Assembly: GCA_051003195.1 (NCBI GenBank) | Contig: JBPCLP010000047.1 | Span: 149,745 to 213,744, forward strand | Direction: 5' to 3' | Length of the DNA: 64,000 nucleotides | Source: Candidatus Sumerlaeaceae bacterium | Lineage (GTDB): Bacteria; Sumerlaeota; Sumerlaeia; Sumerlaeales; Sumerlaeaceae | In this document: in pieces, positions 50,401-64,000 of the stretch | Numbering within the stretch: the stretch's first letter is position 1 | Layout of the letters: every line of letters starts with the position of its first letter | Translations under genes and position numbers: made by a program | Notes under the pieces: model-generated | Databases searched by the model: none | What the model was told of the DNA's origin: nothing | The model's input: only the letters and a program-made list of their open reading frames with translations

Positions 50401-50863
50401 GGCAGCCATCCCCCTGGAACTCCAGGATGAAGCCGTTGAAAAAATCCACCACGTGACCGCAGATCGCGTAATACGCGTCCAGGATTTCCTTCGTCTCCTC
50501 CGGGCGCAGATGCTCGCACAGCCGCGTGTAGCCCACCAGGTCCACAAACACAACCGTCGCGCTGCGGTACTGGTCCTCCCCTCCGCGCAACGCCCGCTCC
50601 AGCCGCGTGCGATGCTGCATCATCAGGATCTCGCCAAGGTCACCCAGACCGCCCGAACCCGGCATCAGCGCCTCGCCGTCCCCCAGCAGGTCCCGCTCCT
50701 CGCGGCTCGCAATACGAGGCAGAGTCTCGTCCACCAGCACCGCACCACAATAGCGGCACAGCTTCGCCTTCTCCTTAATCCACTCCGCGCAGGCCGGGCA
50801 CTCTTTATAACCGGGTTTTTGTTCAGTCATGGCTGAGGTTCCACATTTTAGTAAAGCGCCCAA
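47447..50863 (-). CDS. Multidomain signalling protein: Zn-ribbon, class III adenylate/guanylate cyclase, STAND/AAA ATPase, TPR repeats.
   Basis: 1138 aa. N-terminal CPACAEWIKEKAKLCRYCG. Cyclase core: ATVVFVDLVGYTRL...GDGCLAVFGAP...FGNAVNLAARI. P-loop GEPGIGKTRLA. The C-terminal half contains many TPR-like repeats. Confidence 0.75.
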   Translation of the reverse strand: MGALLKCGTSAMTEQKPGYKECPACAEWIKEKAKLCRYCGAVLVDETLPRIASREERDLLGDGEALMPGSGGLGDLGEILMMQHRTRLERALRGGEDQYRSATVVFVDLVGYTRLCEHLRPEETKEILDAYYAICGHVVDFFNGFILEFQGDGCLAVFGAPMAYERDAESAVRAALAILERIKAMPEMHGHRVKASAGIETGVVLSSVIRTRTPPIYKVFGNAVNLAARIKGVAKPGALMIGPETYDIVRELFKCKKSGMHEFKNIAKKVMVYEVLSARGPEAQRRDFSVPFVGRERELQKLTDVWVRCFDGRGSDVATYERVSGGESERRVCGVVLEGEPGIGKTRLALEFAQRQAGAVIGHVEGAPYSAKVPWELWRGVLSSLLEGAARNPGESDWKRVERALERLGYSRVDATPILAMLGDPRALDNIQALPPLAAQRLLRTELRALLERIAGRATALVLILDDLQWSDRTSTEALNALLASPPKKTFFMVAYRNEESTDIAQMRALERVRLRGLDLRSRRALFGALADLQDILPEVRERLIHQEAGNPFYMMELARNAARAIAEGIKPASMYAEFDPENPSTSAGELVPPSLLEILQSRIDSLDERRKLVLQCAAVLGKRFSLEFIEFFNFIQEGLLARLYSLKTLQLLDDNITVTGLEFFFLHHITREVSYRTLLVRQRRELHTFIATELERKYADRLAPYAPVLAYHWTQAEDDARSIPYLRMSGDQASGMGAIPDAMEHYEEALKRLHRLAPTPENRKVVATILRARAKLQRLSGEPRRALESLASALDALGKSRDNRLLSRIRLEAGLALQMTGEYDRAQKEFETALPMARKHGDVDVIADLVQGLGLCWWSRGDFGKARELFETALEVDLSEGHPSIAAAVRNNLALVEWKAGELKKAAGLLREALRFQQITGDKFLICATVMNLGILEENLGNSEAAEKHYREALALAERLQYQQVLTATHANLANLFLSQQHGVDAMRHSAAAYEIAEKIEDRRSAAIALENLALSNLILHNPGECRKLVKQANRVAEELGDAERMFSLELVDIEAAIVEKPGNGLAKRLAKAERSLQLFGYEAERPRLLRLTAQHHARTNDPAKAKVAAALALDAARKQNNVPEQGRTRALIQNLK

Positions 50864-53800
50864 TTTCCTACATTGCTGACAGCGCCATAAGGGATTACGA
50901 CGGTGAATTCAGGTGACACTATAAAGTCGTTCGTCTGCACGTCCACGCGGTACCAGTGAGGTATTGCTTTGTTAAGTGTATTATCGATAAAAGGCGAGGA
51001 TGTCAGAGGGAGATTCTCATTCACCAATGACCAGGGACCGGTGCCCGATTGGGAGCTTCTCATGATGCGATACGTGAGCAAGTTTGAAGGTTTATCCTGC
51101 TCGTCAAAATGGAGTTCTGCTACGCCGCTTACGATAATGACCTGGCCATTGTTTGCCGCACCTTGCCCAAATAATATCGCAAACTTATTTCTGGTATCGT
51201 CAGGGACGACAAATCCGTTTACATCTCTTGCCTGACTTATGCGAAGCGTGTTCGTGCCATCGTCGCTGGCGCTTTGCGGGGCGTGCCGTCCCTGCCATGT
51301 CCGTGCGTTCACCCAACCGGGCACTGCTTCCAGAACGTTCTGTGTGTATGGCGCTGTACGCGCGAATGTCACTGCCGGCGAGATGGATTGATTCATATCG
51401 CGGCTGAATGTCAGAGTGAAAGTCGTCGGATGCCAGTCGACCACCTTGCCGCCATCAGGCGGTGAAGCGTTCAATAGACAAGTGGGTGCAGAAGTACTCA
51501 GAGCGCTGGTTATCAGGTTTGGTGCATGCGGGGAGTAATTCAGGTAGAAACCGGATGTTCCATCCCGCCCATCCTGGATATACGGATCAATGTCATACGG
51601 CGAAGGATTCGTATTCATCAGCAATGTCGCCGAAGTGCCCCAGAAGTTACCGCTGAATGTTTTGCCCCCCCCTCCGAGCGGCAACTGGTTATCATGAGCA
51701 TCTGCGGCAAGGTTACCGAACAGGTTTGACCCCGTTATGCCACTTGAGCCGAGGCTTGTCACACCGTATGTGGTGTTTGATGTAACCGAGCAGTTTGTCA
51801 GTGTGGCGGCATTCGAGCCGCTCACGCCAGCGGCTCCGTTGCCGATCACGATACATCCGGCAACCGTGCCATTTGTCTGGATGCCATTACCCGTATTTCC
51901 AACTATGCTGCTGTCGGAAACATTGCCGTTATTAATGCCAAAACCGAAGTTTCCGCCGACGTAGTTTCGTGTTCCATTTGTCACGCCGTTAAGACCCGAG
52001 CCATTTGCGCTGACGGCGCTATCCTGCAGCGTGGTCACTCCGCTTGCTGCGCTGCCTGTGTTGCCGGAAATTGTGGAACCGACTACACTCGAACTGCCGC
52101 TGCCGGCTACCCCTGTGCCAGTGTTGCCTTTGACACTACAGCCGTTTACTGTCGAACCCGCCGTCGCAGCAATACCACCGCTCCCGTTTTGGTTGCTCGT
52201 ACAGTTAAGCGCCGTACCACCGCTATTTATTGAAATTCCAACCCCACCGTTGGACTGGGAGGTGCTTGCACTCACATTCCCTGCGGTGCACAAAATGCCT
52301 GCGCCGCCATTGGAGGTCGCGCTGCTGCTGGTCACGGAACCGGCGCTTACTATACCGCGAGCTGCATTGCCTGCAGCGGTACCATTCGTTACGCCGCTAG
52401 CGAGCAGGCCGTCACCATTGCAGGTATTTACAGCACAATCGACAGCGCTGCCGTTGGTTTGTAATCCATGGCCCCTGCTCCACGTCGCTGAGCAATTGAG
52501 CGCATTGCGCGCACCAAGTGTCAGGGCTGACCCGCGCGAATGCAGAACATCGCAACTGTCAACGGCAGCAGTGCCGGCATCGCTCTGAATTCCATACCTC
52601 GGCGAGGCTTCTGAGGTACAGTTCTTAATGGTCGTCGCGGAGTGTTGGTTAGTGAGCGCACCGCGCTGAAACTTGCAATGTTCAAGGTTCGCACCCGACG
52701 AACTGCCGCTGATATGAATCCCGCCCCAACCCAGCGAGCCCGCAAATTTTGCTACGAAGATGTCGCCTGTCTGGTCCCCATCACTGCTTGCCTGTGCCAC
52801 CAATGCGATACTCCGAGGTTCAGCAGTACCGAAATACGCCGTGTTATCAATCCAACCGCACGAAACAACGTCACCGTTGGGAAGCGCGGCAAGCCCGGAA
52901 CAGGTGTCTCCGAAAAGTCCGTTTGCGGTATTAACGTTATCAGTGCCACCCTGTGGCTTCGCCCACGCTAGCGTGCCGTCGCTTCGGTACTTCGCAATAT
53001 AAGCGCAATCGGCGTTGCTGCTAAGCGTCGTTGGGTTGTCATTAAGTCCAAAACCTGCGTCACCACGGAAGCGTCCACCAATGTAGCATGAGCCGTCGCT
53101 GTTCGTGGCAACTGCGAAACCGATGTCGAGCAAGGGCGCTATAATGGAAGCTCCCGCACGCTTCGCCCACGCTAGAGTCCCGTCGGCGTTGTAGCGCGCA
53201 ACGAATATGTCTTCTCGCCCGCCAGAAACGAGAGTCGTCTGATAAAACTCTGCCGCGCCAAAGATAGCAGTATTATTAAAATAACCTGTTACCATCGCGG
53301 AACCATCCGCAAATCCGCTCACCGCATAAGCCTGGTCAGAAGAAGGTGAGCCGGCCGTTTTTACCCATGCAAGGGTTCCATTAGCGTTGAAATGAGACAC
53401 AAATATTTCACCTACGCCACCGCTGGCGTTGCTCACATTCGTTTGCCCGGCGGCACCCGGACCTGGGGACTCTCCGAGCCCAAAAACTGCATTGCCACCA
53501 ATTGCTCCGACGACAGTACAGCTCTGGTCGGGAAAAGCGCATACTGCCCTGCTGCTATCTTGAACCGCACCCGAAGTCCCAAACTGTTTTGCCCAAAGTA
53601 GGGTTCCAGCCGAATTGTATTTTGCCAGAAAACCGTCAAGCGACCCAGTGGATGTCAGCACCGTTCCCGGCGCGGCACCAAGTGTAATGCTGCTGGTAAA
53701 ATCCCCGGTTACAATAAAACCATTGTCTGCAGTGGGGGCTACTCCAGAAGCATAATTGTTGCTTGTAGAGGAATTTGCAATACGCCTGGCCCAAATCAGT

Positions 53801-56175
53801 TGTCCGGAAGTTCCGTTGAACTTGGCGATAAAAGGTTCCGTGTAATCAAACGAAACGGCCCCTGTGACTGAAATGGAAGTTTCGTTGGGTTCTCCGGACC
53901 CGAATACAGTGGTGCCAGTTATGCGGCCAACTACTACCACATTGCCTGAGCTGTCAGCACTGATTCCGGAGCCTGCCGGCTTGTACGAGAACAGGCTCGA
54001 ATGGAAGCTTTTGGCCCAAAGGACAAAACCATCCCGGCTATACCTTGCGACAAAGGGCTCCGAGTAGTTCGGGGAGGTGATTGTAATAACCGAGCCGTCA
54101 GCGGCTTTAAAACTGGCCGAAGAACGGATAAACCCAGTGATGGCGTAGCCACCGTCCGGGAGGGATGTAATTGCTGTGGCATGGCTGGGCTTCAGCCCTC
54201 CTGCCCTGGTTGCTGTCACTAGATCGTCATCGGTCGTTGTAAGGTCGTACCTGGGTGACGCGCCCGTGAATGTGATGGGCTGTGAGACCGTTCCCTGTGC
54301 GGTCAGCGTACCGCTAAGCAGATCCAGACTCGCCTGGGGCTCCACCAATACTGTCGTGCCCGGCTGAATGCTTAAACCGGACTGTACGTTGATCCCACCC
54401 TGGAGCACGTAGGTTTTGTTGTTTGTCCAGTTTAAGGGGGAAAAATAGGAGCCGCCGGCAATATACTCTTTCAGCTCTCCGGTGAGCACAATCGACAGGG
54501 CTTGTGAGTAGCTTCCGCCGTTGGCCGATATCGACAAGGTAAAATAGCGGGGTGCGGCTGTCGCAAGGCCGGAGAGTGAAATCTGCAGTGGCAGGACATT
54601 CAAGCCGCTGTTACCATGAGTTAACGCGTTCCAGCTGGATGTCGTCACCAGCACGCTTGCCAGTGTTTCGGTTGTTGAAAGCGTTGCGCTGAAGGTCCCC
54701 GTGTCCGCGCGGCCGTTATATAGCATTATTGCCAGGTTTGCTGTTTCGCCGGCATCCAGTCTGCCGTCGGCGTTATTACTTCCCAGCAGTGTCGTATTAT
54801 CGTCGACGATAATCGAAGCGACGGAAAACATCGGGTTCATGGCCGTGGTAATCGCAGCAGCGGCATTTACTTTTCCGAAGCCGGCGCCGTCAGACGGCGA
54901 AAATTCGGCAATGGAGGAAGCTGTGCGTTTCAGATGATCGGCAATAGCAGGTCCGCCCTGAAGCGGGTTACTCGCCTTCACCAAGGCGCCTACACCGCTG
55001 ACTATTGGACAAGCATAGCTCGTACCGCTGCCATAGTTCCCATTGTATAGGCCGCCCGGGATGGTTGAGTATATTGTATTGCCTGGAGCAAAGAGGTCAA
55101 CCAGGTCACGTTGTGTGCCATTGTAATTAGAGTAAGCAGCTCGCTTGCCTGCATCGTCGAGTGCACCAACTCCAACCACACTAGGCCAGCTTGCAGGGTA
55201 GACTGGTGCGCTCCCCTGTCCTTCGTTGCCTGCGGCAGCCACTACCAACACCCCGGCTGCACTCGCACCGTCGCAGGCCTCTTTAAGCGTAGTGTTAGAA
55301 CTGCTGAATCGGATGCTCATATTGATAACATGCGCATTCTTTATTACTGCACGATCTACTGCACGTGCAGCATCGTCCGCGCTTATGAATCCCCCGGAAT
55401 TTGCAACGTCGAGCGAGAGGATACTGGAACCGAAAGCGACACCTGCGATACCTTCGTTATTATACGCCTCAGCTGCGATAATGCCCGCCACTCGAGTACC
55501 GTGACCGAGATCGTCGGCTATTGTAGTATTATCGTCTGCGAAATTGTAGGAATTCGCCAGATCTAGAACATCCATCAGATCGGGATGATTCCGATCGACG
55601 CCAGAGTCGATGACCGCGACCTTTACATTTGACCCGCCCGCTGTTGCCTGGCCTGCCCAGCCCGCTTCAAGGTTAACCTGCGCAAAATCCGTCGCCTGCT
55701 GAGGCAGGTAATCCGGATCGGTGGGAGGCAAAACAGCTAGGGTGCCGAGGTGGTTTGGTTCTGCATATTCGAGCGCGACAACCTCGCGCAGTTCGATTGC
55801 GATTTGTTGGATATCGGCGCTCGCCGGAAACTTGAGACGATGAATACGTCCACTGCGATCGTTGAGGGCGGCACTTTTACTACGTAAATGACCACGTGGC
55901 TTTGCCCCTTGGAAACCATGTTTCTGGAGTATTTCCGTCAGGCTGGTGCTTGCATCGCTGTATGAGCTAAATCCATTGCGGTTCCGAGCGTCGCGTTCGG
56001 CTATGCTGGGAACCTTTCCCGCATACTTTACCAGCAGTTCCCCGGCCACGTAGTCTTTCTCAGGCTTTGCCGTGGCTTGCACCGACAGTGTGCAGATAAC
56101 GCTGGTCAGCACTAGGACCAGCCATTTTCCCATTCCTTGCATGATGCTCCTCCCGTCCAGCGGCAACTCCATCAA
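50848..56175 (-). CDS. Giant secreted subtilisin-family (S8) serine peptidase with beta-propeller (SBBP-like) and beta-helix repeats.
   Basis: 1775 aa. Signal peptide present. S8 triad contexts: VAVIDSGVD (Asp), HGTRVAGIIAA (His), GTSYACPIVSGVGAL (Ser). Repeated ...DGFLAKYNSAGTLLWAK... beta-propeller-like units, and Asn/Gly/Ser/Thr-rich beta-helix-like repeats. The 3' end overlaps the cyclase gene start by 16 nt. Confidence 0.75.
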   Translation of the reverse strand: MMELPLDGRSIMQGMGKWLVLVLTSVICTLSVQATAKPEKDYVAGELLVKYAGKVPSIAERDARNRNGFSSYSDASTSLTEILQKHGFQGAKPRGHLRSKSAALNDRSGRIHRLKFPASADIQQIAIELREVVALEYAEPNHLGTLAVLPPTDPDYLPQQATDFAQVNLEAGWAGQATAGGSNVKVAVIDSGVDRNHPDLMDVLDLANSYNFADDNTTIADDLGHGTRVAGIIAAEAYNNEGIAGVAFGSSILSLDVANSGGFISADDAARAVDRAVIKNAHVINMSIRFSSSNTTLKEACDGASAAGVLVVAAAGNEGQGSAPVYPASWPSVVGVGALDDAGKRAAYSNYNGTQRDLVDLFAPGNTIYSTIPGGLYNGNYGSGTSYACPIVSGVGALVKASNPLQGGPAIADHLKRTASSIAEFSPSDGAGFGKVNAAAAITTAMNPMFSVASIIVDDNTTLLGSNNADGRLDAGETANLAIMLYNGRADTGTFSATLSTTETLASVLVTTSSWNALTHGNSGLNVLPLQISLSGLATAAPRYFTLSISANGGSYSQALSIVLTGELKEYIAGGSYFSPLNWTNNKTYVLQGGINVQSGLSIQPGTTVLVEPQASLDLLSGTLTAQGTVSQPITFTGASPRYDLTTTDDDLVTATRAGGLKPSHATAITSLPDGGYAITGFIRSSASFKAADGSVITITSPNYSEPFVARYSRDGFVLWAKSFHSSLFSYKPAGSGISADSSGNVVVVGRITGTTVFGSGEPNETSISVTGAVSFDYTEPFIAKFNGTSGQLIWARRIANSSTSNNYASGVAPTADNGFIVTGDFTSSITLGAAPGTVLTSTGSLDGFLAKYNSAGTLLWAKQFGTSGAVQDSSRAVCAFPDQSCTVVGAIGGNAVFGLGESPGPGAAGQTNVSNASGGVGEIFVSHFNANGTLAWVKTAGSPSSDQAYAVSGFADGSAMVTGYFNNTAIFGAAEFYQTTLVSGGREDIFVARYNADGTLAWAKRAGASIIAPLLDIGFAVATNSDGSCYIGGRFRGDAGFGLNDNPTTLSSNADCAYIAKYRSDGTLAWAKPQGGTDNVNTANGLFGDTCSGLAALPNGDVVSCGWIDNTAYFGTAEPRSIALVAQASSDGDQTGDIFVAKFAGSLGWGGIHISGSSSGANLEHCKFQRGALTNQHSATTIKNCTSEASPRYGIQSDAGTAAVDSCDVLHSRGSALTLGARNALNCSATWSRGHGLQTNGSAVDCAVNTCNGDGLLASGVTNGTAAGNAARGIVSAGSVTSSSATSNGGAGILCTAGNVSASTSQSNGGVGISINSGGTALNCTSNQNGSGGIAATAGSTVNGCSVKGNTGTGVAGSGSSSVVGSTISGNTGSAASGVTTLQDSAVSANGSGLNGVTNGTRNYVGGNFGFGINNGNVSDSSIVGNTGNGIQTNGTVAGCIVIGNGAAGVSGSNAATLTNCSVTSNTTYGVTSLGSSGITGSNLFGNLAADAHDNQLPLGGGGKTFSGNFWGTSATLLMNTNPSPYDIDPYIQDGRDGTSGFYLNYSPHAPNLITSALSTSAPTCLLNASPPDGGKVVDWHPTTFTLTFSRDMNQSISPAVTFARTAPYTQNVLEAVPGWVNARTWQGRHAPQSASDDGTNTLRISQARDVNGFVVPDDTRNKFAILFGQGAANNGQVIIVSGVAELHFDEQDKPSNLLTYRIMRSSQSGTGPWSLVNENLPLTSSPFIDNTLNKAIPHWYRVDVQTNDFIVSPEFTVVIPYGAVSNVGNWALY

Positions 56176-56396
56176 TGCTACATTTGTCTCTCAGACGCGA
56201 CCGCAAATCAAAAACGGCTCTCACCTTACACAGGGGGCTGTCAATAAATACCTGCGCTCCGACTACCAAAAATACTGTGGAAATTTAACGAAAAAAAGCG
56301 GTGGCTGCACTAGAAATCTGATTGACTCTCTTCCTGTGCACTGGCGAACCCGCCGCGCACTATTCAGTCGTTTATTTTCCACCGTGAGGTTCATCA

Positions 56397-56960
56397 GTGA
56401 AGAGTTTTTGCCTCTCCCTAGTCCTCCTTTCTGCAACGATTCCGGTTCTAGGGCAAACAGCTGCTGTTTTATGCACCGATCCGGACGCATGTGATCCCGT
56501 GTCCGGATTCACTTTTTCATGGACCAATAACGTTGCCCATAGTGGCCATACAGGAGGGATCATCAACACCAGTGATGCCAGTTCGCCACTGGCGGTTCAT
56601 GCTTATAATACAGCAACGGGATACGGATGCATTTCCTGGGATAGTACTGGTCACGTCCTTAGAATCACCGATTGTGCCGGAACAGACACCGACATTATGG
56701 TCCATGAAAATGGAAGCGATAATGACTGCTGGTACTATGACATCGTCAATGGCCACATCAGGGGAAGGTATAGTTCGGACTGTCTGAATATTGATCGCTG
56801 TCCGGCACAGCCGTATGACTGCGAACCGTGTGCATCTGTCTGCAATCCTTGCGCTAATCCATACTGGGAGTTCAGTAATGGGTCTGCGAGACAATACAGG
56901 CAATATTCTAAAAAACGCTCACCTGTTACTCGTGTTGCAAAAAAGCCAAAAAGCCGTTAG
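56397..56960 (+). CDS. Secreted Cys-rich protein (hypothetical; possible beta-trefoil/lectin-like); low-GC gene.
   Basis: 187 aa. Signal peptide present, 14 Cys, and three C...xW-type segments (SWTNN, ISWDSTG, CWYYD). Local GC is about 48%. Confidence 0.45.
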   Translation: MKSFCLSLVLLSATIPVLGQTAAVLCTDPDACDPVSGFTFSWTNNVAHSGHTGGIINTSDASSPLAVHAYNTATGYGCISWDSTGHVLRITDCAGTDTDIMVHENGSDNDCWYYDIVNGHIRGRYSSDCLNIDRCPAQPYDCEPCASVCNPCANPYWEFSNGSARQYRQYSKKRSPVTRVAKKPKSR

Positions 56961-56966
56961 AATCCG

Positions 56967-57356
56967 TTGCTAACTGGAGGAACCATGGGAAAAACTCTTT
57001 TTACATGTCTGATTGTACTATGCGGTGGGCTGGCAACTGCGGATGGACACGTTACCATTGTTACTAAAGCGGCCATTGGTCAACGTCAGTATAATCGCAC
57101 CATATATTATACCGGGCAGTCGTCACACGCCCTTGTGGACGTAGCGAAAATGGCAAGCGTACACCCACCGTTGTTACTCAGTTCCGCTAGCCACCGCTTG
57201 GTTACATTCAGTTGGGATCAATATGGTCACGTAAAAATCCGGCATAACAACAGTCCCAACACGGCTCCCTATCGGGTCCTGACTAAAAAAGATACCCCCG
57301 GATACGAATTCAGAACCTTCAGAGATTTGGGAAATGACTTTTTCTCAATAAACTAG
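56967..57356 (+). CDS. Small secreted hypothetical protein; low-GC gene.
   Basis: 129 aa. Signal peptide present. No motifs recognised. Confidence 0.4.
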   Translation: MLTGGTMGKTLFTCLIVLCGGLATADGHVTIVTKAAIGQRQYNRTIYYTGQSSHALVDVAKMASVHPPLLLSSASHRLVTFSWDQYGHVKIRHNNSPNTAPYRVLTKKDTPGYEFRTFRDLGNDFFSIN

Positions 57357-57369
57357 CGCGTATACTACC

Positions 57370-58062
57370 TTAATGTGCGTCGCTTAGCGCGTGGCGTAGC
57401 TGCGTGCGCAGTATATTGCCAAAGCTAACCGTGCCATTGGTCGAATCATACGGAATATCGGCTCCCAGCAATGCACCAGGACGAGGATTAAAATCACTCA
57501 ATGGAACTGCCGGAAAGGACTGACTGTATTTTCGATCCGGTCCATTACTGCACGTCCTCCAGTCGCCATAGCGGCGTTGCGCGCCCAAGTTATAGGTATC
57601 ATTGTCCACGCCTTCAGGCGGCAGGCGTGTGTAATCAGGTCCGTAATTCGCATATTCCTGTGCATCCACCACCTTCGTATAGGTGTAGTATTTGGCTTCG
57701 TCGGGTGGAACCCCGAAACGGATAATGATTTCCTTTGCCGTAAACGGATCAGGCAATCGCGAGCTGCTGATGTATGCAATTGGCGTTGAAAGCTGCACTG
57801 GAGTGACGTTGTAAACGAGGTCATTCGGCGGGTAGTGGTTGTGATCGACAACATATGACTCCAGCCCCGTCGCTATCGTTCGCAGATCCGCCTTCGCCCG
57901 AGACACCTTCGCCCGCGTCTGCGCCTCCAGGAAGTTCGGAACCGCGATCGCCGCCAGGATCGCGATAATCGCGACCACGATCAGCAGCTCGATCAGCGTG
58001 AAAGCGGCGAGGTTGCGGCCCGTGCCGGGTCGCCAGGCAGGTAGGGGAGTGGCGTGACGCAT
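57370..58062 (-). CDS. Prepilin-type N-terminal cleavage/methylation domain protein (pseudopilin-like).
   Basis: 230 aa. Class III signal and methylation motif FTLIELLIVVAIIAILAAIAVP near the N-terminus. Confidence 0.7.
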   Translation of the reverse strand: MRHATPLPAWRPGTGRNLAAFTLIELLIVVAIIAILAAIAVPNFLEAQTRAKVSRAKADLRTIATGLESYVVDHNHYPPNDLVYNVTPVQLSTPIAYISSSRLPDPFTAKEIIIRFGVPPDEAKYYTYTKVVDAQEYANYGPDYTRLPPEGVDNDTYNLGAQRRYGDWRTCSNGPDRKYSQSFPAVPLSDFNPRPGALLGADIPYDSTNGTVSFGNILRTQLRHALSDAH

Positions 58063-58206
58063 GGAGTGGGGTTCCTGATGGGGTTTGCGTCCTCATCCCA
58101 CCCCAGCGCCAAACTTGCAACTTCAAACTTACCCCTACCCCCCAACCACTAACCACACTTAATAGTCCGAACGGGGCGATCCTCTGTGCGGTAGCGTCGG
58201 CCCAGG

Positions 58207-59676
58207 CTAAAGCCTGTGACCACTTGTTGCCATCATTTCAGAGGACGGCAGTCCGAGGAGATCAATAAGGATTTCGTCCTTTCCGATTTCGATCTTATCC
58301 GTAATGGCTTCAATGATTTTCCGTTTGTCCTCATGCTCCAGCGTCGGCCAGCGGGTATATAAGTCCGCCGCTTCGTAGGCGACCTGGTCACTGGAGAGCA
58401 GGTTGACTTTGAGGTAGTCTAACTCGCCCTCCAAACGGGGTATCTGCTCATCCAGTTCGCGGTAGCGGGTTTCCAGCGGGCCGTAACGTGCGGCAAAACC
58501 TTCCTCACTTATGTGGTGGCCGATGTAGAGTTTGTAGGTTCGATCCATCTCGGCAGACAGCTTTTCTTGTTGGGCCTGGAGGGCGGCTAGCTGCTCCTGC
58601 TTGTCGGTGATGGCCTGCTCGGATTGCAGCAGGTATGCCTTTATGTCCGCAGATGAGAGAGCAAAGTTCTTAAGCTGTTCGTAAAAGATGCCTTCGAGAT
58701 CTATGATTGGGATCTTGTTCCGGCATACCTGGCATACGTATTTTGGCGTATTCGAGGGCACGTACATTTTGCCCCCACAGGTGCAGACGGTCACCCCGGC
58801 AAAAAGGTGCACCGGTCGCCGCGCCGGTACCTTCTTGTTACCACCCTGTTCCAGCAGAATGTGCTGGACCCGGCTCCAAAGCTCTTCGGAAAGGATCGGT
58901 TCGACCTTGCTATAGATCCACTCGCTTTCCGGTTTAATGACCTTCTTGCCTTCGGTGAGCGTCGAGTAGTTCGCCCGGTAGAGCCCTTTGGGGGTTGTAT
59001 CCCGTAACAGCCGGTCAATTCCGGTATGCTCAAACAGCTTGCCGGCGCGGGTCCGATGCCCCGCGTCATTGAGTAGATCCGCGACGGTACTCTTGCGCTT
59101 GTGCTCAACAAACAGTTCGAAGATGAGCTTACGAATGGGCGCTTCTCTGGAGTTCGGCACCATCTTGTTGTCCACCCACTGATAGCCAAAGGGCGCTTCA
59201 CTGCCAAGCCGCTTTCCGAGCTTGGCACGGATAGGGACCGATGCTCTGATACGGTCCGCGATTTCTTCGCGCTCCCAGGTCGCCATGGCAGCAATGACTG
59301 TATAAAAAAAGCGGCCAATTGGCGAGGACGTATCGATAGATTCCTGAAGCGACACCAAATGAGCACCGTGCGTCTCAAACAGTTCCGCAAATTCCAGAAG
59401 TTCCTTCGTATTTCGGGCCAGCCGGGCGAGTTTTGAGAACAAGAGTCCCTGGATGTGCCCACGTTTGACGTCGGCAAGCATCCGTTGGGTCTCTTTCTCA
59501 GCGATCACCGACTTGCCGCTGACGCCTTCCAGGTGGTAGACCTCGACCACCTGCCATTCCTTGATTTCGGCATACTGGCGAGCGCGTCGCTCGTGGTGCT
59601 CGGGACTGTCACCCTTGGCCTGGTCTTCGGTTGAGACCCGAATCCAGATGCCGACACGTTTGGTTGATTCTACCAT
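58207..59676 (-). mobile_element. Large serine recombinase (resolvase/invertase catalytic domain plus recombinase domain plus zinc ribbon/coiled-coil).
   Basis: 489 aa. N-terminal catalytic domain VGIWIRVSTEDQ...LARLARN (Ser nucleophile context). Long C-terminal domain with a Cys cluster (CTCGGKMYV...CQVCRNK) and a coiled coil, typical of phage or ICE integrases of the serine family. Confidence 0.8.
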
Positions 59677-59775
59677 CTTGTTACTGTCACTCCAAAACAG
59701 GCGATACGTCCTAAGGTTCTACGCAGATCACGTCCTGTCATTTACAAACCAAACGCACTTTGTTAGAATTCGCCT

Positions 59776-60003
59776 ATGAACGATCTATCCAAGCAACTGC
59801 ACGATTTCGAGCAACGCCAAACAGCGTTGATCGAGACGGTCGCACAACGTCTCGACCTACTGGCCGATGATACGCGCGATCTTAAGCGTGATGTTCGATC
59901 CATTTTGCAGATGGAAGCCGGCAATACCCGTGACCTTGTGCTGTTGACCCACCGAGTCGAAGCGATCGAACGCGAAGTCGGTATTCGACCCGCTCAGGCA
60001 TAA
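59776..60003 (+). CDS. Small coiled-coil hypothetical protein.
   Basis: 75 aa. Sits between the recombinase and the ATPase gene. No motif recognised. Confidence 0.3.
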   Translation: MNDLSKQLHDFEQRQTALIETVAQRLDLLADDTRDLKRDVRSILQMEAGNTRDLVLLTHRVEAIEREVGIRPAQA

Positions 60004-60113
60004 CGAGACACCCTCTAACGTGGGGCGGGCCCGCGCCCGGCAGTGCTCATTAAGCAATAGCACGCTGGGAAAACGCCTCCCGCCCGTAAGGTCAACTGGC
60101 GAGTCGATCTCTT

Positions 60114-63100
60114 TTACTTTCCCTGCCGTCCATTCGCTTTGATCACCGAATCCGAGATGACGCGTTTGGTCAGGTCACCTTCTAAGCCGTTCGGCGCCCG
60201 GTAGCGAGCGGTGACCCGGTATCCGCGAACGGTTTCCGTCCGATTGGTCATGCTGGCCGTTAGGTCCATGACAAACTCCTTAAGCTCTTCAAGGGAACAA
60301 AACCGCACCTTCGCCAATGCACTTTCCTCAAGCTGCTTCAGGGCGAGCTTCTTAATTATGTCGAGGTGCTTTCTCTCGGTCGCGAGAACGAGAATATGAT
60401 CGAAACCCGCCGCGAGACATTTTCTGATGTTTTGGATTTCGTGACCGGCCGAGGTGGTGACCGAGACCTCGCATCCAATCCGGCAGCCATTCCGTTCCAT
60501 GACAATATCGACACTTCCCGTGCCATCGGCGGTCGGTTGTTCAATGGTTGCCCGCCAGCCCATCCCTTCGGACCATAGCTTGATCTGGTTCTGGATCCGC
60601 TTGTGATCCATGCCGCCCCGGCCCAGGTGGGCCGGGGCGGCAGCAACCGTTCTCTTTTGCCGTGGTATAGCGTGTATGACGCCTTCTGGGCTGGCGATTG
60701 GATTGGGAATGACTGGCTCAACCGCCACGGTTTCAGAAACTTCGGGATGCAGCGGATCAGGCGGTCCTGCGGATAACGGTTCGGATGGAGCCACGGCATG
60801 CGAAGTTGCTTCGGTAGGTTCGGACACTGAAGCGGACATTGTCCTCGGCTGCTTCGGAACTCTTCCGTTCGTTGGCTTGCGGGCAACTTCGAGTGCATCC
60901 AGCTCCCGTTCCAATGCAGCATCCACTTCAGCACGTGTGGCGGCATACTTGCTTCGGCTGGATTCAATGATCGTCTCCCGATTTGCCGTGGCACAACCCG
61001 GCTCAATACTCTCAAATCGTGGAACGGCCAGGTTGAAGTCATTATCCGCCCGGCCAATCCGGGCAATGGCTTGTCCGGTGGCCAGATTCAGGAAGTCTTT
61101 CGGCTCGAAAAAGGAAAAGCCCGCCGCCAGTTTGACGGCATCGGCATCCCCCAGCCGGAAGCAGATTCGGGTGTGTGGATTCGCCAGGAGAGAACCGGCG
61201 AATTCAGATTGCCCAAGCTGCCGCAATTCCTGATGGGCCAGGGTCAATCCCAGTTTGTATTTGCGGACTCCCGATAAGATAGAGACCATGCTTGGACAGA
61301 GAAAATGGTGGCACTCATCGACAGTGAGCCAGAACGGCCGCCGTGCTTCCTGCGCCGTGCCTTGCCGGGCTAGCGCAATCTGGTGGAATTTGGAAAGGAG
61401 CAGCGTCCCAAGTAAATACGCGTTTTCTTCTCCGATTGCCCCTTGCGATAGCCGAGCGAGAAAGATTTTCCCGGAATCCATGATGTCTGCAAAGTTGATC
61501 CGGTTTCCCTTCTGTGCCACCATGCGGCGAATCAGCTTGGGTCGAAGAAAACTATCAAGTCGGGTCAGAATTGGTCCAAGCGAACCCCCGCCCTTGAGCA
61601 AGGGAAACTCCCGCTTCCAATAGTATGCAATTTCGCGGTCCTGGATCGATGGAAGAAAGTTTTCCCGGTAGTGCGTGTCGACAAGGAAACGGCGGAGATC
61701 AGCAAGCGTACCTCCGCGAGTGCTCTCCAGAAACGCGAGAATGGCATTCGCAAATACCGAATTCATCTGGTCGCCCCAGCTGGTTGACTGCCGGCGAAAG
61801 ATAGCAACAAGATCAGAAGCGAGGAGATTCTTTTCGAGCTCAGAGTGCGCCTGGAGGATATTGAAACCAACAGGCCATTCTTCGTCGCCGGGATCGACCA
61901 GGACGACATCATCGAGCCGTTCCTTGGGAATCCGAGCAAGGATTTCATCGATCAGGTCACCGTGTGGGTCGAGCACACCTACGCCTTCACCCCGTTCAAT
62001 GTCTTGAAGGATAAGGTTCAGCAAAAAAGTACTCTTGCCAGTCCCGCTGGCTCCCAGCACGTACATGTGGCGCGTGCGCTCGTCCGCTGTCAGTGATACA
62101 TCGCCTGTCTTGCCCAGATGCTCATTGATCCCGAGCACCAATTTTCCATTTGCAGTCGCTGGTGCGGCTTTTGTTCGGCTCACTTCACGAATCAGCTTGC
62201 CCGATCTAACCGATGCGGATGGTGGATGAACCAGTGAAGCCAGCTCTTCACTGGACAGTAGCATCCCGCTGCGGTGCGAACGACGCGCGAGCAGATCGTC
62301 CCGATGCTCGATATCATCGTAGTCTTCGTTGGTCAAAGGGATGAGCGCATTGGTATCGGGACTGCCAAACTGTGCCAGACCGCTACCGATGGCTTGGAGG
62401 AGCTCGAATGGCTCGTCGTCGCCCATGGCCGCAAGGCGAATGCTCGCGGAGTACAGTGGTGAGCCAATTTTTCGCCGCGCCGCAGCCGGAAGCTCAGGTA
62501 ACGTCGCGAATAGCTGTCGGCCATTGGAATCCATAACCGCTCGTAGGACGCTTTCGGCCCAGGGATAACGAACTGGCTGAAAGAGCACCTGGACGACGGC
62601 AAGTTCGTCATCACGCAAAGTACTCATTGCGCCGACGAGGGCTACGAGAGGATCTGGACTAAAGCCGCCAGCAATTCGTAGCGGCACCATGAACTCTCGT
62701 CGCAGTCCAAAGTCTACGATGCTTGCATAACGGCCCGATCGCTCCCAAACTTCTGAGAGAAAGTCGCGTTTCTCAGTCAATACCGCTTCCGGGAAGTACG
62801 ACGCGAGCTGGTTACGTACTTCGCGCAGGTGATGCTCGCGACAGATTATCTGGATGACAATGCTCTGCGACGTGCCGATGATCTCAAAACTCATAGGACA
62901 AGCGCAGTAGCCGAGTGCGGCCAGAAACAGTTCGGCTTCCGACCGGCCAATGGAAAGAGTTGGTGGCAACGCGAGCTGGATTTCGACCAGTGCGCTGTCG
63001 ACGCCTTCGCCAAACGGTTCGGGCCCATACTCCGGCAATTCAATTTCCGGTTCTGGCTCTGGTTCGCGGACGCGGTAAACCCAGCGTTCAATTCGGTTTG

Positions 63101-63350
63101 CAAGCACACTCCAGATAGTCGGTTTTCTCAGATCGTCTACATAAGGCCGTAGACTAGGTGGCTGGAAAAGAAACGGCGTGAATGGCGGTTCAAGTGTCAC
63201 CGCTTCGGGCCAGGTCAACCACCCACGACCACGGATTTCCCATTCATAAAACTGCTCCCGAAAATGATCCGCCTGCGTTTTCACATCCGGCGCTTGCGGT
63301 AGAAGTCGTAGAGAATTGGACTCCGTTCCATCTCGGTCAGGGGCCGACAC
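60114..63350 (-). CDS. Large P-loop NTPase with a type IV coupling protein (TraD/TraG/VirD4)-like core, an N-terminal domain of about 430 aa of unknown function, and a C-terminal extension of about 190 aa.
   Basis: 1078 aa. Walker A YVLGASGTGKST, Walker B WLTVDECHHF, and a T4CP-like motif GLTLAHQELRQL (latQ..QL). No TM helix. The annotated start overlaps the upstream membrane-protein gene by 70 nt, so the true start is probably internal. Confidence 0.6.
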   Translation of the reverse strand: MSAPDRDGTESNSLRLLPQAPDVKTQADHFREQFYEWEIRGRGWLTWPEAVTLEPPFTPFLFQPPSLRPYVDDLRKPTIWSVLANRIERWVYRVREPEPEPEIELPEYGPEPFGEGVDSALVEIQLALPPTLSIGRSEAELFLAALGYCACPMSFEIIGTSQSIVIQIICREHHLREVRNQLASYFPEAVLTEKRDFLSEVWERSGRYASIVDFGLRREFMVPLRIAGGFSPDPLVALVGAMSTLRDDELAVVQVLFQPVRYPWAESVLRAVMDSNGRQLFATLPELPAAARRKIGSPLYSASIRLAAMGDDEPFELLQAIGSGLAQFGSPDTNALIPLTNEDYDDIEHRDDLLARRSHRSGMLLSSEELASLVHPPSASVRSGKLIREVSRTKAAPATANGKLVLGINEHLGKTGDVSLTADERTRHMYVLGASGTGKSTFLLNLILQDIERGEGVGVLDPHGDLIDEILARIPKERLDDVVLVDPGDEEWPVGFNILQAHSELEKNLLASDLVAIFRRQSTSWGDQMNSVFANAILAFLESTRGGTLADLRRFLVDTHYRENFLPSIQDREIAYYWKREFPLLKGGGSLGPILTRLDSFLRPKLIRRMVAQKGNRINFADIMDSGKIFLARLSQGAIGEENAYLLGTLLLSKFHQIALARQGTAQEARRPFWLTVDECHHFLCPSMVSILSGVRKYKLGLTLAHQELRQLGQSEFAGSLLANPHTRICFRLGDADAVKLAAGFSFFEPKDFLNLATGQAIARIGRADNDFNLAVPRFESIEPGCATANRETIIESSRSKYAATRAEVDAALERELDALEVARKPTNGRVPKQPRTMSASVSEPTEATSHAVAPSEPLSAGPPDPLHPEVSETVAVEPVIPNPIASPEGVIHAIPRQKRTVAAAPAHLGRGGMDHKRIQNQIKLWSEGMGWRATIEQPTADGTGSVDIVMERNGCRIGCEVSVTTSAGHEIQNIRKCLAAGFDHILVLATERKHLDIIKKLALKQLEESALAKVRFCSLEELKEFVMDLTASMTNRTETVRGYRVTARYRAPNGLEGDLTKRVISDSVIKANGRQGK

Positions 63351-63949
63351 TCCTTGGCGCCCGTCTGCGCATCGACCACTTCCATGATCGCAGCGTGTAC
63401 CGCCGCCTCATACATCTTTTGGGTGTCCTGGCGGTAGTAGGTCGGCGGCGCGAAGTAGCGCTCCCAAAGGGGGCCAAATAGTAACACGGCGAAGAAGTAT
63501 ACGTTGGCCTCTCGCTCTGCCTGGCTGACGAAGAGTCCTGCCGCGAGCCATTCGAAGATGACCGCCAGTCCCGCGATCAGTGGACCCTGGAACAGTCCGA
63601 ACCAATCATAGGACTGCATGACGGTAAAGGTGATTATCGCCCCGGCAGCAAGTGTTGGGAAAAATGGCGACGGTCGCCCCTCGGCAAACCACCAGGATAC
63701 AAAGAAGCCGGTGCCGAACGGCGCAGCGCAGATGTCGATAACAAAGCGCCCACGCCCCGCGCGCAGGTATTCGCGGTAGGCGGAGAACATCCCGCGTTCC
63801 TGGTAATCAATCCGGCTGCGCCTTAAGTCCGGAACCTCTCGCTTTTTGACCGCCTTTTCGATCGCCTCCAAAAACTCTTCAGCTGACGCCTGAAACCCGT
63901 CGAAGAAATGATGCCAGTTCGATTGTGGTACATACCTCATCGCGCACAT
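63281..63949 (-). CDS. Membrane protein (3-4 TM helices), hypothetical; possibly a partner of the downstream ATPase.
   Basis: 222 aa. Hydrophobic segments FVIDICAAPFGTGFFVSWWF, LAAGAIITFTVM, IAGLAVIFEWLAAGLFV and VYFFAVLLFGPLW. Confidence 0.45.
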   Translation of the reverse strand: MCAMRYVPQSNWHHFFDGFQASAEEFLEAIEKAVKKREVPDLRRSRIDYQERGMFSAYREYLRAGRGRFVIDICAAPFGTGFFVSWWFAEGRPSPFFPTLAAGAIITFTVMQSYDWFGLFQGPLIAGLAVIFEWLAAGLFVSQAEREANVYFFAVLLFGPLWERYFAPPTYYRQDTQKMYEAAVHAAIMEVVDAQTGAKECRPLTEMERSPILYDFYRKRRM

Positions 63950-64000
63950 AGGCTGCTCCTCATGGCTGTACGGCCGGGGTTAGGCCAACAAGTCTTATAG

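Follow-up and report, generated by a model that had tools for sequence, protein, structure and literature searches.

The window analysed here, a stretch of 64,000 nucleotides from a Candidatus Sumerlaeaceae bacterium (contig JBPCLP010000047.1), carries at its end three genes that are all read from the minus strand. The first encodes a membrane protein of 222 aa with one hydrophobic region (63281–63949; hereafter MEM), the second a long ATPase resembling type IV coupling proteins (T4CPs) (60114–63284; ATP) and the last a large serine recombinase of 489 aa (58207–59676; REC), in which the Resolvase and Recombinase domains were detected at 1e-31 and 2e-14, respectively. The open reading frame (ORF) of ATP reaches back to a GTG at 63350, which gives 1078 aa. 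Its start is most likely the GTG at 63284, which was also called on a Logan contig (1056 aa) and forms a GTGA overlap with the stop codon of MEM, an arrangement that, judged by its sequence, is typical of translational coupling. The three genes, here called the MEM-ATP-REC cassette, are the module at the integrase end of integrative elements that form a widespread and apparently undescribed family, since the MEM-ATP pair is conserved, REC follows it, and the 3′ ends of REC genes abut cut comM and tRNA-Ser genes. An earlier reading of the same DNA from its sequence alone (the original prediction) had taken all that lies from position 56,176 to beyond 64,000 for one probable mobile element, and every ORF that it listed is present in the window.

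The ATPase had at least 598 hits in a scan of species-representative genomes, from which 80 loci were taken and compared by their six-frame ORFs. They come from Acidobacteriota, Verrucomicrobiota, Planctomycetota, Bacteroidota, Gemmatimonadota and Desulfobacterota, as well as from metagenome-assembled genomes (MAGs) labelled as Candidate Phyla Radiation (CPR). A MEM homolog lies directly upstream of ATP and on the same strand in 63 of the 70 evaluable loci, usually overlapping it or at most 25 bp apart; the original prediction had already noted a membrane protein ahead of the ATPase. An orthologous REC (45–61% identity) follows ATP in the same orientation at no more than 2.6 kb, often at 4–130 bp, in 27 of 71 evaluable loci, and its pairwise divergence parallels that of ATP (Spearman/Mantel rho 0.49, reached in 0 of 500 permutations). 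At one locus (L074), a tyrosine integrase stands in the place of REC right after the ATPase and abuts a tRNA-Ala gene. Replic_Relax, DnaG-type (CHC2-Toprim) primase, RadC, PDDEXK_1, RuvC-like and helix-turn-helix (HTH) regulator genes each occur in subsets of the 80 loci. Primases accompany ATP in 13 of them, and Replic_Relax is present in 12, where it usually adjoins a different, short paralog rather than the long ATPase. This second T4CP-like ATPase (390–510 aa; SXT_TraD-like, TraG-D_C) was found in about 20 loci (L056:805-2166, L005, L016, L019, L025, L027, L034, L049, L064, L069 and L071 among them), often directly beside Replic_Relax and a DnaG-type primase, or with a SWIM-like protein and a PDDEXK_1 nuclease as its neighbours. 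Only 2 hits were obtained among the 2.9 million contigs of IMG/VR, thus the family is not typically viral, and no full-length homolog of the ATPase was found in PLSDB or INPHARED, where matches were of just 20–34% identity over the ATPase core.

Some occurrences concern the hosts of the cassette. It is also found in bins labelled as Patescibacteria (CPR; L008, L053 and L075), which points either to a very broad host range or else to binning errors. The element in a MAG labelled as Klebsiella (L064) has about 70% nucleotide identity to loci labelled as Verrucomicrobia, which suggests mis-binning. The sole cultured isolate among the 80 loci is Pedobacter frigiditerrae RP-1-13 (L078, NZ_SJSK01000001.1:634052-656895), which holds MEM, the long ATPase, the short paralog and a distant serine recombinase, with a C-terminal fragment of comM at the element edge. 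On a Sulfitobacter plasmid (L082, NZ_CP081110.1:97127-101181), a T4CP-like protein of 395 aa with 34% identity to the motor domain of the window ATPase is located 1.3 kb from a 515-aa recombinase-family gene and a DUF3768 gene, followed by transposases; this plasmid locus may be a degraded relative of the module.

REC is a full large serine recombinase and not a lone resolvase. Its Resolvase domain (PF00239, 110 bits) covers residues 10–155, with the catalytic-serine motif RVSTEDQ at residues 13–19, and is followed by the Recombinase domain (PF07508, 54 bits), by a zinc-ribbon-like CxC..CxxC motif at about residues 297–318, to which the Pfam zinc-ribbon model gave no hit, and then by a coiled coil with weak matches to coiled-coil models such as JetC and SMC. 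The nearest NCBIfam models are CcrB, CcrC and XisF, all far under their cutoffs. The original prediction had assigned this recombinase to an integrative element, and in this it is supported: its orthologs lie at 9 comM junctions and 1 tRNA-Ser junction. The YifB/ComM gene is cut at ...FMLAAAMNP in 10 loci (TIGR00368 positions 3–347 of 499), and in 9 of these 10 the cut comM lies directly against the 3′ end of REC, on the opposite strand. The complementary comM piece (positions 343–499) was found in seven other loci, a few kb downstream of the ATPase. The missing half was never located within 10 kb upstream of MEM, thus elements of the comM type exceed 15 kb; their interior consists mostly of unique genes.

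REC is the terminal gene of these elements, with its own 3′ end forming the element edge in all 10 verifiable relatives. In 8 loci (L002, L003, L021, L024, L029, L033, L047 and L064), the REC ORF reads through the junction into antisense comM, so that the final 7–10 codons of REC are antisense comM or, in L027, antisense tRNA-Ser (L027:14876-14965). The conserved comM junction reads GGCAACGCAACCTCA on the element side followed by GGGTTCATGGC. Since REC reads across the junction, its C-terminal tail differs between the integrated and the excised states, and one arm of the attachment (att) site is coding sequence.

By homology to the 8 comM junctions, the REC-side attachment arm and element edge in the window are predicted at 58207–58240 on the minus strand. 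The C-terminal tail of the window REC, ending in LPSSEMMATSGHRL, aligns with the arm-encoded tail of its relatives (..LPSSEE.T..QRNL..), and the arm itself reads on the minus strand GGCAACAAGTGGTCAC up to the predicted edge and AGGCTTTAG after it, with the GGCAAC...TCA frame of the comM-type arm kept. From this alignment we infer that the element ends in the window at about position 58,216. If so, a Cys-rich protein gene, a 129-aa gene, a prepilin gene and the low-GC patch in which some of this DNA lies would all stand outside of it, and the AT-rich cargo and prepilin gene (56176–58200) that had been counted as parts of the element would have to be given up as such.

The 1078-aa ORF of ATP passes the Pfam thresholds of TrwB_AAD_bind (35.6 bits against a cutoff of 20.5) and of DUF87, with FtsK_SpoIIIE staying under its own (17.5 against 24 bits) and all NCBIfam T4CP models far under theirs. 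Its homologs, more than 2943 in the databases, are of about 1,030–1,060 aa, combine DUF8128, which is precomputed for them, with TrwB_AAD_bind, and share 40–50% identity across phyla with more than 130 invariant columns. The N-terminal region (62121–63284, minus strand), which opens with the invariant FYxWExRGRGW..LEPPFxPF and goes on to the DUF8128 alpha/beta domain, is what defines the family. Searched against 1.84 billion representatives, it matched 1161 clusters (50% level) at E of 1e-3 or below and 399 at 1e-30 or below, nearly every match being N-terminal in a protein of about 1000 aa. The motor domain follows (60951–62120, minus strand) with Walker A GASGTGKS at residues 433–440 (in the 1078-aa numbering) and Walker B VDECHHF (D678, E679), and the columns of both are invariant in the alignment. 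In the AlphaFold2 (AF2) model of ATP, the predicted local distance difference test (pLDDT) is 70 overall, low in residues 1–115 and between 70 and 90 in residues 121–370. Foldseek against PDB gave TrwB as the best match (E 1.7e-10, TMt 0.64, about 440 aligned columns) and next HerA, DotL, VirB4 (TMt 0.67) and Cag-beta; at the sequence level the motor matched TrwB in PDB at 5e-7. No transmembrane segment was found in ATP, where no hydrophobic 19-mer reaches 1.6 on the Kyte-Doolittle scale. ATP belongs to the fold class of soluble ring ATPases of the TrwB/FtsK/HerA type, in line with the T4CP-like ATPase first proposed at this place. On a 27.5-kb plasmid of B. subtilis, the genes that come directly after a distant homolog are one for replication-relaxation and others for conjugal transfer.

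Behind a Pro-rich disordered linker, ATP carries a C-terminal domain (60117–60635, minus strand) of alpha-beta-beta-beta-alpha-beta order with a GRGGxxH motif ahead of it, in which D948, E961, E971, N974 and K977 are invariant or nearly so. The order of secondary structures in the model fits that of PD-(D/E)XK enzymes, with D948 and E961 invariant, a Ser at the position of the ExK lysine and an invariant K977 in the next helix; the domain may be restriction-endonuclease-like and is a putative nuclease. In a long-ATPase subfamily (P0029, P0089, P0097 and many PF12728 rows), an HTH of the AlpA/excisionase type (HTH_17) takes the place of the extreme C-terminus.

MEM consists of a conserved cytoplasmic alpha/beta N-domain with the motif CAAPFGTGFFVSWW, a variable hydrophobic hairpin and a conserved helical C-terminal part (TYYRxDT), and its AF2 model has a pLDDT of 85.5. 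No Pfam domain covers the family, all members of which are named hypothetical. The hydrophobic segment spans residues 119–143 in the window protein, and at least one such segment is present in 36 of 37 homologs, placed elsewhere in some variants; the sequences suggest that membrane attachment of MEM matters and is conserved by alternative means. Three variants of the Bacteroidota type (P0169, P0187 and P0192) are without the central hairpin and have an N-terminal hydrophobic helix in its stead.

A Logan contig (L001) that is 100% identical to window positions 58205–64000 extends 2,025 bp past 64,000. Past MEM it carries a divergent tetratricopeptide repeat (TPR) gene and then a cupin gene, and accessory mobile-element genes were found neither in the window nor on this contig. 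At its other end it stops directly after the REC stop codon with CTGTCTCTTATACACAT (L001:7822-7838), a Nextera transposase adapter. The apparent break is therefore an assembly artefact that tells nothing of the junction. Exact-protein look-ups with REC and with the prepilin returned one Logan contig each, from the same sample, and those with the ATPase and its NCBI-called form no further contig. Direct and inverted repeats between the REC end and the 2.1 kb of flank on the MEM side are at chance level (best score 20, 95th percentile of the null 24), as are those at the candidate complete element in L076 and any inverted copy of the comM-type arm. The flanking direct repeats that the original prediction had looked to are thus not above chance, and for a large serine recombinase they are not expected. 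The MEM-side boundary of the element lies past 64,000, outside the sequence available; that the element continues there, as was first supposed, may well hold, the missing comM half in comM loci being more than 10 kb upstream of MEM.

The relative L085, with an ATPase 65% identical to that of the window, has the same TPR-MEM-ATP-REC order. Its identity to the window is 65–80% for MEM, ATP and REC and about 54% for the flanking TPR gene. Vertical inheritance could account for this shared order, and so could repeated site-specific insertion or a TPR gene that is itself cargo. The original prediction had named relatives with the same genes in the same place, native GC and no flanking repeats as evidence against a mobile element; L085 agrees with this in part, which does not separate vertical inheritance from re-insertion.

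Downstream of REC, the genes that would fall outside the element are the Cys-rich protein gene (56397–56960, plus strand; 187 aa with 12 Cys and a signal-peptide-like N-terminus), the 129-aa gene (56967–57356, plus strand; an ORF call) and the prepilin gene (57370–58062, minus strand; 230 aa, with the N_methyl motif PF07963 at 28.3 bits against a cutoff of 21.2). They adjoin a gene for a secreted giant protein of 1775 aa with an S8 peptidase domain and beta-helix repeats (50848–56175, minus strand), which borders the low-GC patch; the prepilin gene and both genes for small secreted proteins may form a group with this neighbour instead of with the element. The drop in GC that had been described from about 56.2 kb onwards is a real dip, to 0.47–0.50, which is restricted to 56.25–57.5 kb; the rest of the end, from 57.5 to 64 kb, is native at 0.52–0.60. 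The lowest 1250-bp window of the whole stretch lies in the dip, at 0.482 (2.8 standard deviations under the mean of 0.560, standard deviation 0.028), and a second low-GC stretch of 0.492 is found at 31.5 kb. No tRNA gene is present in or near the region and an Rfam scan of it gave 0 matches; an RNA gene as the insertion target of the window copy was therefore rejected.

Between ATP and REC, on the strand opposite to both, lies p75, a helical ORF of 75 aa (59776–60003, plus strand) for which there is a gene call on the Logan contig. No homolog of it occurs in the 80 loci, and it is absent from the closest relative, L085. About 10 other loci have an unrelated ORF of 77–98 aa at the same position and strand. 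A sigma-70-like promoter match (10/12, with an extended −10 TG) is located at 59741–59769 on the plus strand, 7 bp upstream of p75 and diverging from REC; the region has as many such matches as chance would give. p75 is an uncertain gene and, if real, could be a regulator or directionality factor. Like it, the 187-aa, 129-aa and prepilin proteins do not recur in the 80 related loci, except for one distant pilin match 8 kb away in L006.

We somewhat favour the reading in which the 58.2–64.0 kb part of the window is the integrase-proximal end of an integrated island, with MEM and ATP acting in the processing or translocation of its DNA. The family would be defined by a cassette of the form MEM-ATP-(small ORF)-REC. 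REC would catalyse site-specific integration and excision of the island; many lineages would offer comM/yifB as its target, and others a tRNA gene or an intergenic site. The 3′ end of REC would hold one arm of the attachment site. MEM, presumably co-transcribed and translationally coupled with ATP, most likely tethers the ATP ring to the inner membrane. Once the element is excised, the two proteins would bind its DNA, cut or nick it and translocate it while the element is transferred horizontally or becomes established, which would liken it to a mobilizable or actinomycete-type element more than to a self-transmissible integrative and conjugative element (ICE). The original prediction had spoken of actinomycete-type or ICE-like elements, which is too specific for a locus with no type IV secretion system (T4SS), relaxase or Rep gene in the window or 2 kb past it. 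The family-level claim of an element is much firmer than this functional one, which brings in the putative nuclease activity, the predicted tethering and role in DNA transfer, and the possible present mobility of the window copy. A bolder version, to which we give little credence, makes MEM, the ATPase-nuclease and REC a self-sufficient minimal machine for DNA mobility without canonical relaxase or T4SS. If this is true, REC would excise the element, and a membrane-tethered T4CP-like ring with its own nuclease would process its DNA and pump it onwards. Many environmental phyla would then share a new route of horizontal transfer, the smallest form of which would be the window copy of about 6 kb.

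Several observations weigh against assigning MEM and ATP to DNA transfer by a moving island. The MEM-ATP-REC portion has native GC, and neither relaxase, primase, Rep nor T4SS genes are present in the window or in the 2 kb past it, which add just the TPR and cupin genes; nor is any T4SS family recurrent among the 80 loci. Since about 20 related elements also hold a short T4CP-like ATPase beside Replic_Relax, the long one is unlikely to be just the coupling protein. Neither an empty site nor an excised form was found: the search with the flanking TPR protein returned that protein alone, and there were no alternative contigs for the flanking proteins. The same gene order in the diverged L085 means that the window copy could be old or immobile. 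For the proteins themselves, no fold match to MEM was found in PDB or BFVD, and profiles of the ATP C-terminal domain gave nothing significant against PDB and Pfam, the best being REase-ARP for 1 of 18 members at E 0.0023.

MEM and ATP could instead protect against phages or competing mobile DNA, as a system of defence or exclusion that is near-universal cargo beside the integrase and does not serve mobility; a sensor or effector in the membrane would then cooperate with a HerA/T4CP-like ATPase-nuclease. Integrase-adjacent positions are common hot spots for defence genes, and many of the elements already own a short T4CP-like ATPase beside a relaxase candidate. The layout of an ATPase with a nuclease-like domain resembles HerA-effector systems, Sir2-HerA and DUF4297-HerA are among the Foldseek structures, and DptH is a weak match in PDB. 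PADLOC moreover reported mad8 at 1e-16 together with weak HerA hits, yet the former is limited to the P-loop core with the other seven MADS genes absent, and the latter, at E of 3e-4 or above, to the Walker A region. The MEM-ATP pair, with its 40–50% identity across phyla and more than 130 invariant columns, is also far more conserved than typical cargo and keeps more constantly to the integrase end, whichever type of integrase is there, and the divergence of REC follows that of ATP. We hold this explanation to be unlikely. Membership in MADS as such was rejected, the mad8-like match (residues 424–760) being a lone one with no other PADLOC hit in seven neighbouring proteins. It is still less probable, and in our view improbable, that ATP acts as a helicase, initiator or resolvase (as Cch in staphylococcal cassette chromosome, SCC, elements) to replicate or maintain the circle formed on excision, and does not serve DNA transfer. 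Such a role would suit a ring ATPase with a nuclease-like domain that shares an operon with the integrase and is accompanied by primases in 13 loci; among NCBIfam models, REC comes nearest to the SCC recombinases CcrB and CcrC, and in actinomycete ICEs (AICEs) the repSA-xis-int arrangement puts the integrase in one operon with a rep gene. The fold of ATP, however, is of the TrwB/HerA/VirB4 class and not that of MCM, DnaB or Rep, an obligatory membrane partner is hard to square with a replicative helicase, and no origin-like repeats were noted.

Two further explanations concern the extent and the state of the window copy. That one element runs from 56,176 to past 64,000, with the low-GC cargo and the prepilin gene included and attL near 56.2 kb, appears very improbable. 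The window has its lowest GC precisely at 56.25–57.5 kb, 2.8 standard deviations under the mean, and the 187-aa, 129-aa and prepilin genes, without homologs in the 80 loci save the distant pilin of L006, could be unique cargo. Yet REC is terminal in all 10 verifiable relatives, its ORF even crossing the junction, and the tail of the window REC aligns to the attachment arm; the dip in GC stops at 57.5 kb and has a similar counterpart at 31.5 kb, and no repeats link 56.2 kb to the cassette. It is possible, if rather doubtful, that the window copy is a stranded or domesticated remnant, a bare MEM-ATP-REC that no longer moves, which is compatible with the explanation at the family level. The native GC, the lack of accessory mobile-element genes nearby and the synteny with L085 all agree with this. 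On the other hand, none of the three ORFs is truncated and no invariant catalytic residue has been lost, identity to L085 is higher for MEM, ATP and REC than for the flanking TPR, and site-specific insertion would give the same flank too.

Hundreds of species of poorly studied phyla have the cassette at one end of an island, and it can serve as a practical marker for island boundaries. With it come serine integrases that target comM or tRNA genes and whose att arms are predictable, since these are coded inside the integrase gene, as well as a highly conserved and uncharacterised pair of a membrane protein and an ATPase-nuclease, for which DNA transfer, establishment and defence are candidate roles. 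For the window itself the finding is more modest: one end of one island copy, with no sign of current mobility.

Integrative islands and integrative and mobilizable elements (IMEs) with a serine integrase and a T4CP-like ATPase are a known kind (PMC5704250, PMC5357655). The cassette resembles them in having a site-specific serine recombinase at the edge and a T4CP-like ATPase with no mating-pore (T4SS) set, and in that a subset of its relatives carries the candidate relaxase Replic_Relax and a primase. The integrase of an element at its edge with an interrupted target, by which such islands are recognised, was found at the family level and would by inference apply to the window copy. Unlike in known islands and IMEs, the ATPase is without an N-terminal transmembrane anchor and has a DUF8128 N-domain, a nuclease-like C-domain and a dedicated membrane partner, many relatives own a second, canonical short T4CP-like gene, no relaxase or oriT was seen in the window, and the hosts are of environmental phyla and not Firmicutes. 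With the T4CPs TrwB, TraD and VirD4, ATP shares the TrwB_AAD_bind match, a TrwB-type nucleotide-binding domain with an all-alpha domain, and a distant plasmid homolog in a conjugation operon; it differs from them in lacking a transmembrane segment, in being more than twice as long through its extra N- and C-terminal domains, and in not being located beside a relaxase or T4SS in the window. Perhaps the separate MEM gene supplies the anchor that T4CPs carry in the same polypeptide. The set that defines an ICE, a T4SS including VirB4 together with a relaxase, was not found in 58–64 kb or in the 2 kb past the window.

AICEs of the pSAM2 type, with their FtsK-like TraB pump, are similar in combining an integrase with one ring translocase and no T4SS, and in placing the integrase in an operon with DNA-processing genes. 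They differ in that FtsK_SpoIIIE is matched by ATP under threshold, no Rep gene is present in the cassette, its translocase is not itself membrane-anchored and its host is not an actinomycete. The HerA-effector systems and MADS, an eight-gene mad1-mad8 operon (10.1101/2023.03.30.534895), likewise have a P-loop ring ATPase with a nuclease-like module, but their partner genes are absent here, the matches are limited to the ATPase core, and the cassette is constantly linked to an integrase and an element edge. SCC elements are alike in the linkage of a large serine recombinase to a conserved ring ATPase, in highly variable cargo and in insertion into a conserved housekeeping gene. Their Cch is MCM-like, whereas ATP is of the TrwB/HerA class and has a membrane partner, the target of SCC is rlmH and that of the cassette comM, a tRNA gene or an intergenic site, and REC scores 137 and 100 bits against CcrB and CcrC, far under their cutoffs of 900 bits. 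The literature searched contained no mention of DUF8128 and no description of a MEM-ATP-REC cassette. What is apparently undescribed is the combination of a membrane partner, an ATPase joining DUF8128 to a T4CP-like motor and a nuclease-like domain, and an integrase whose ORF crosses its own att site.

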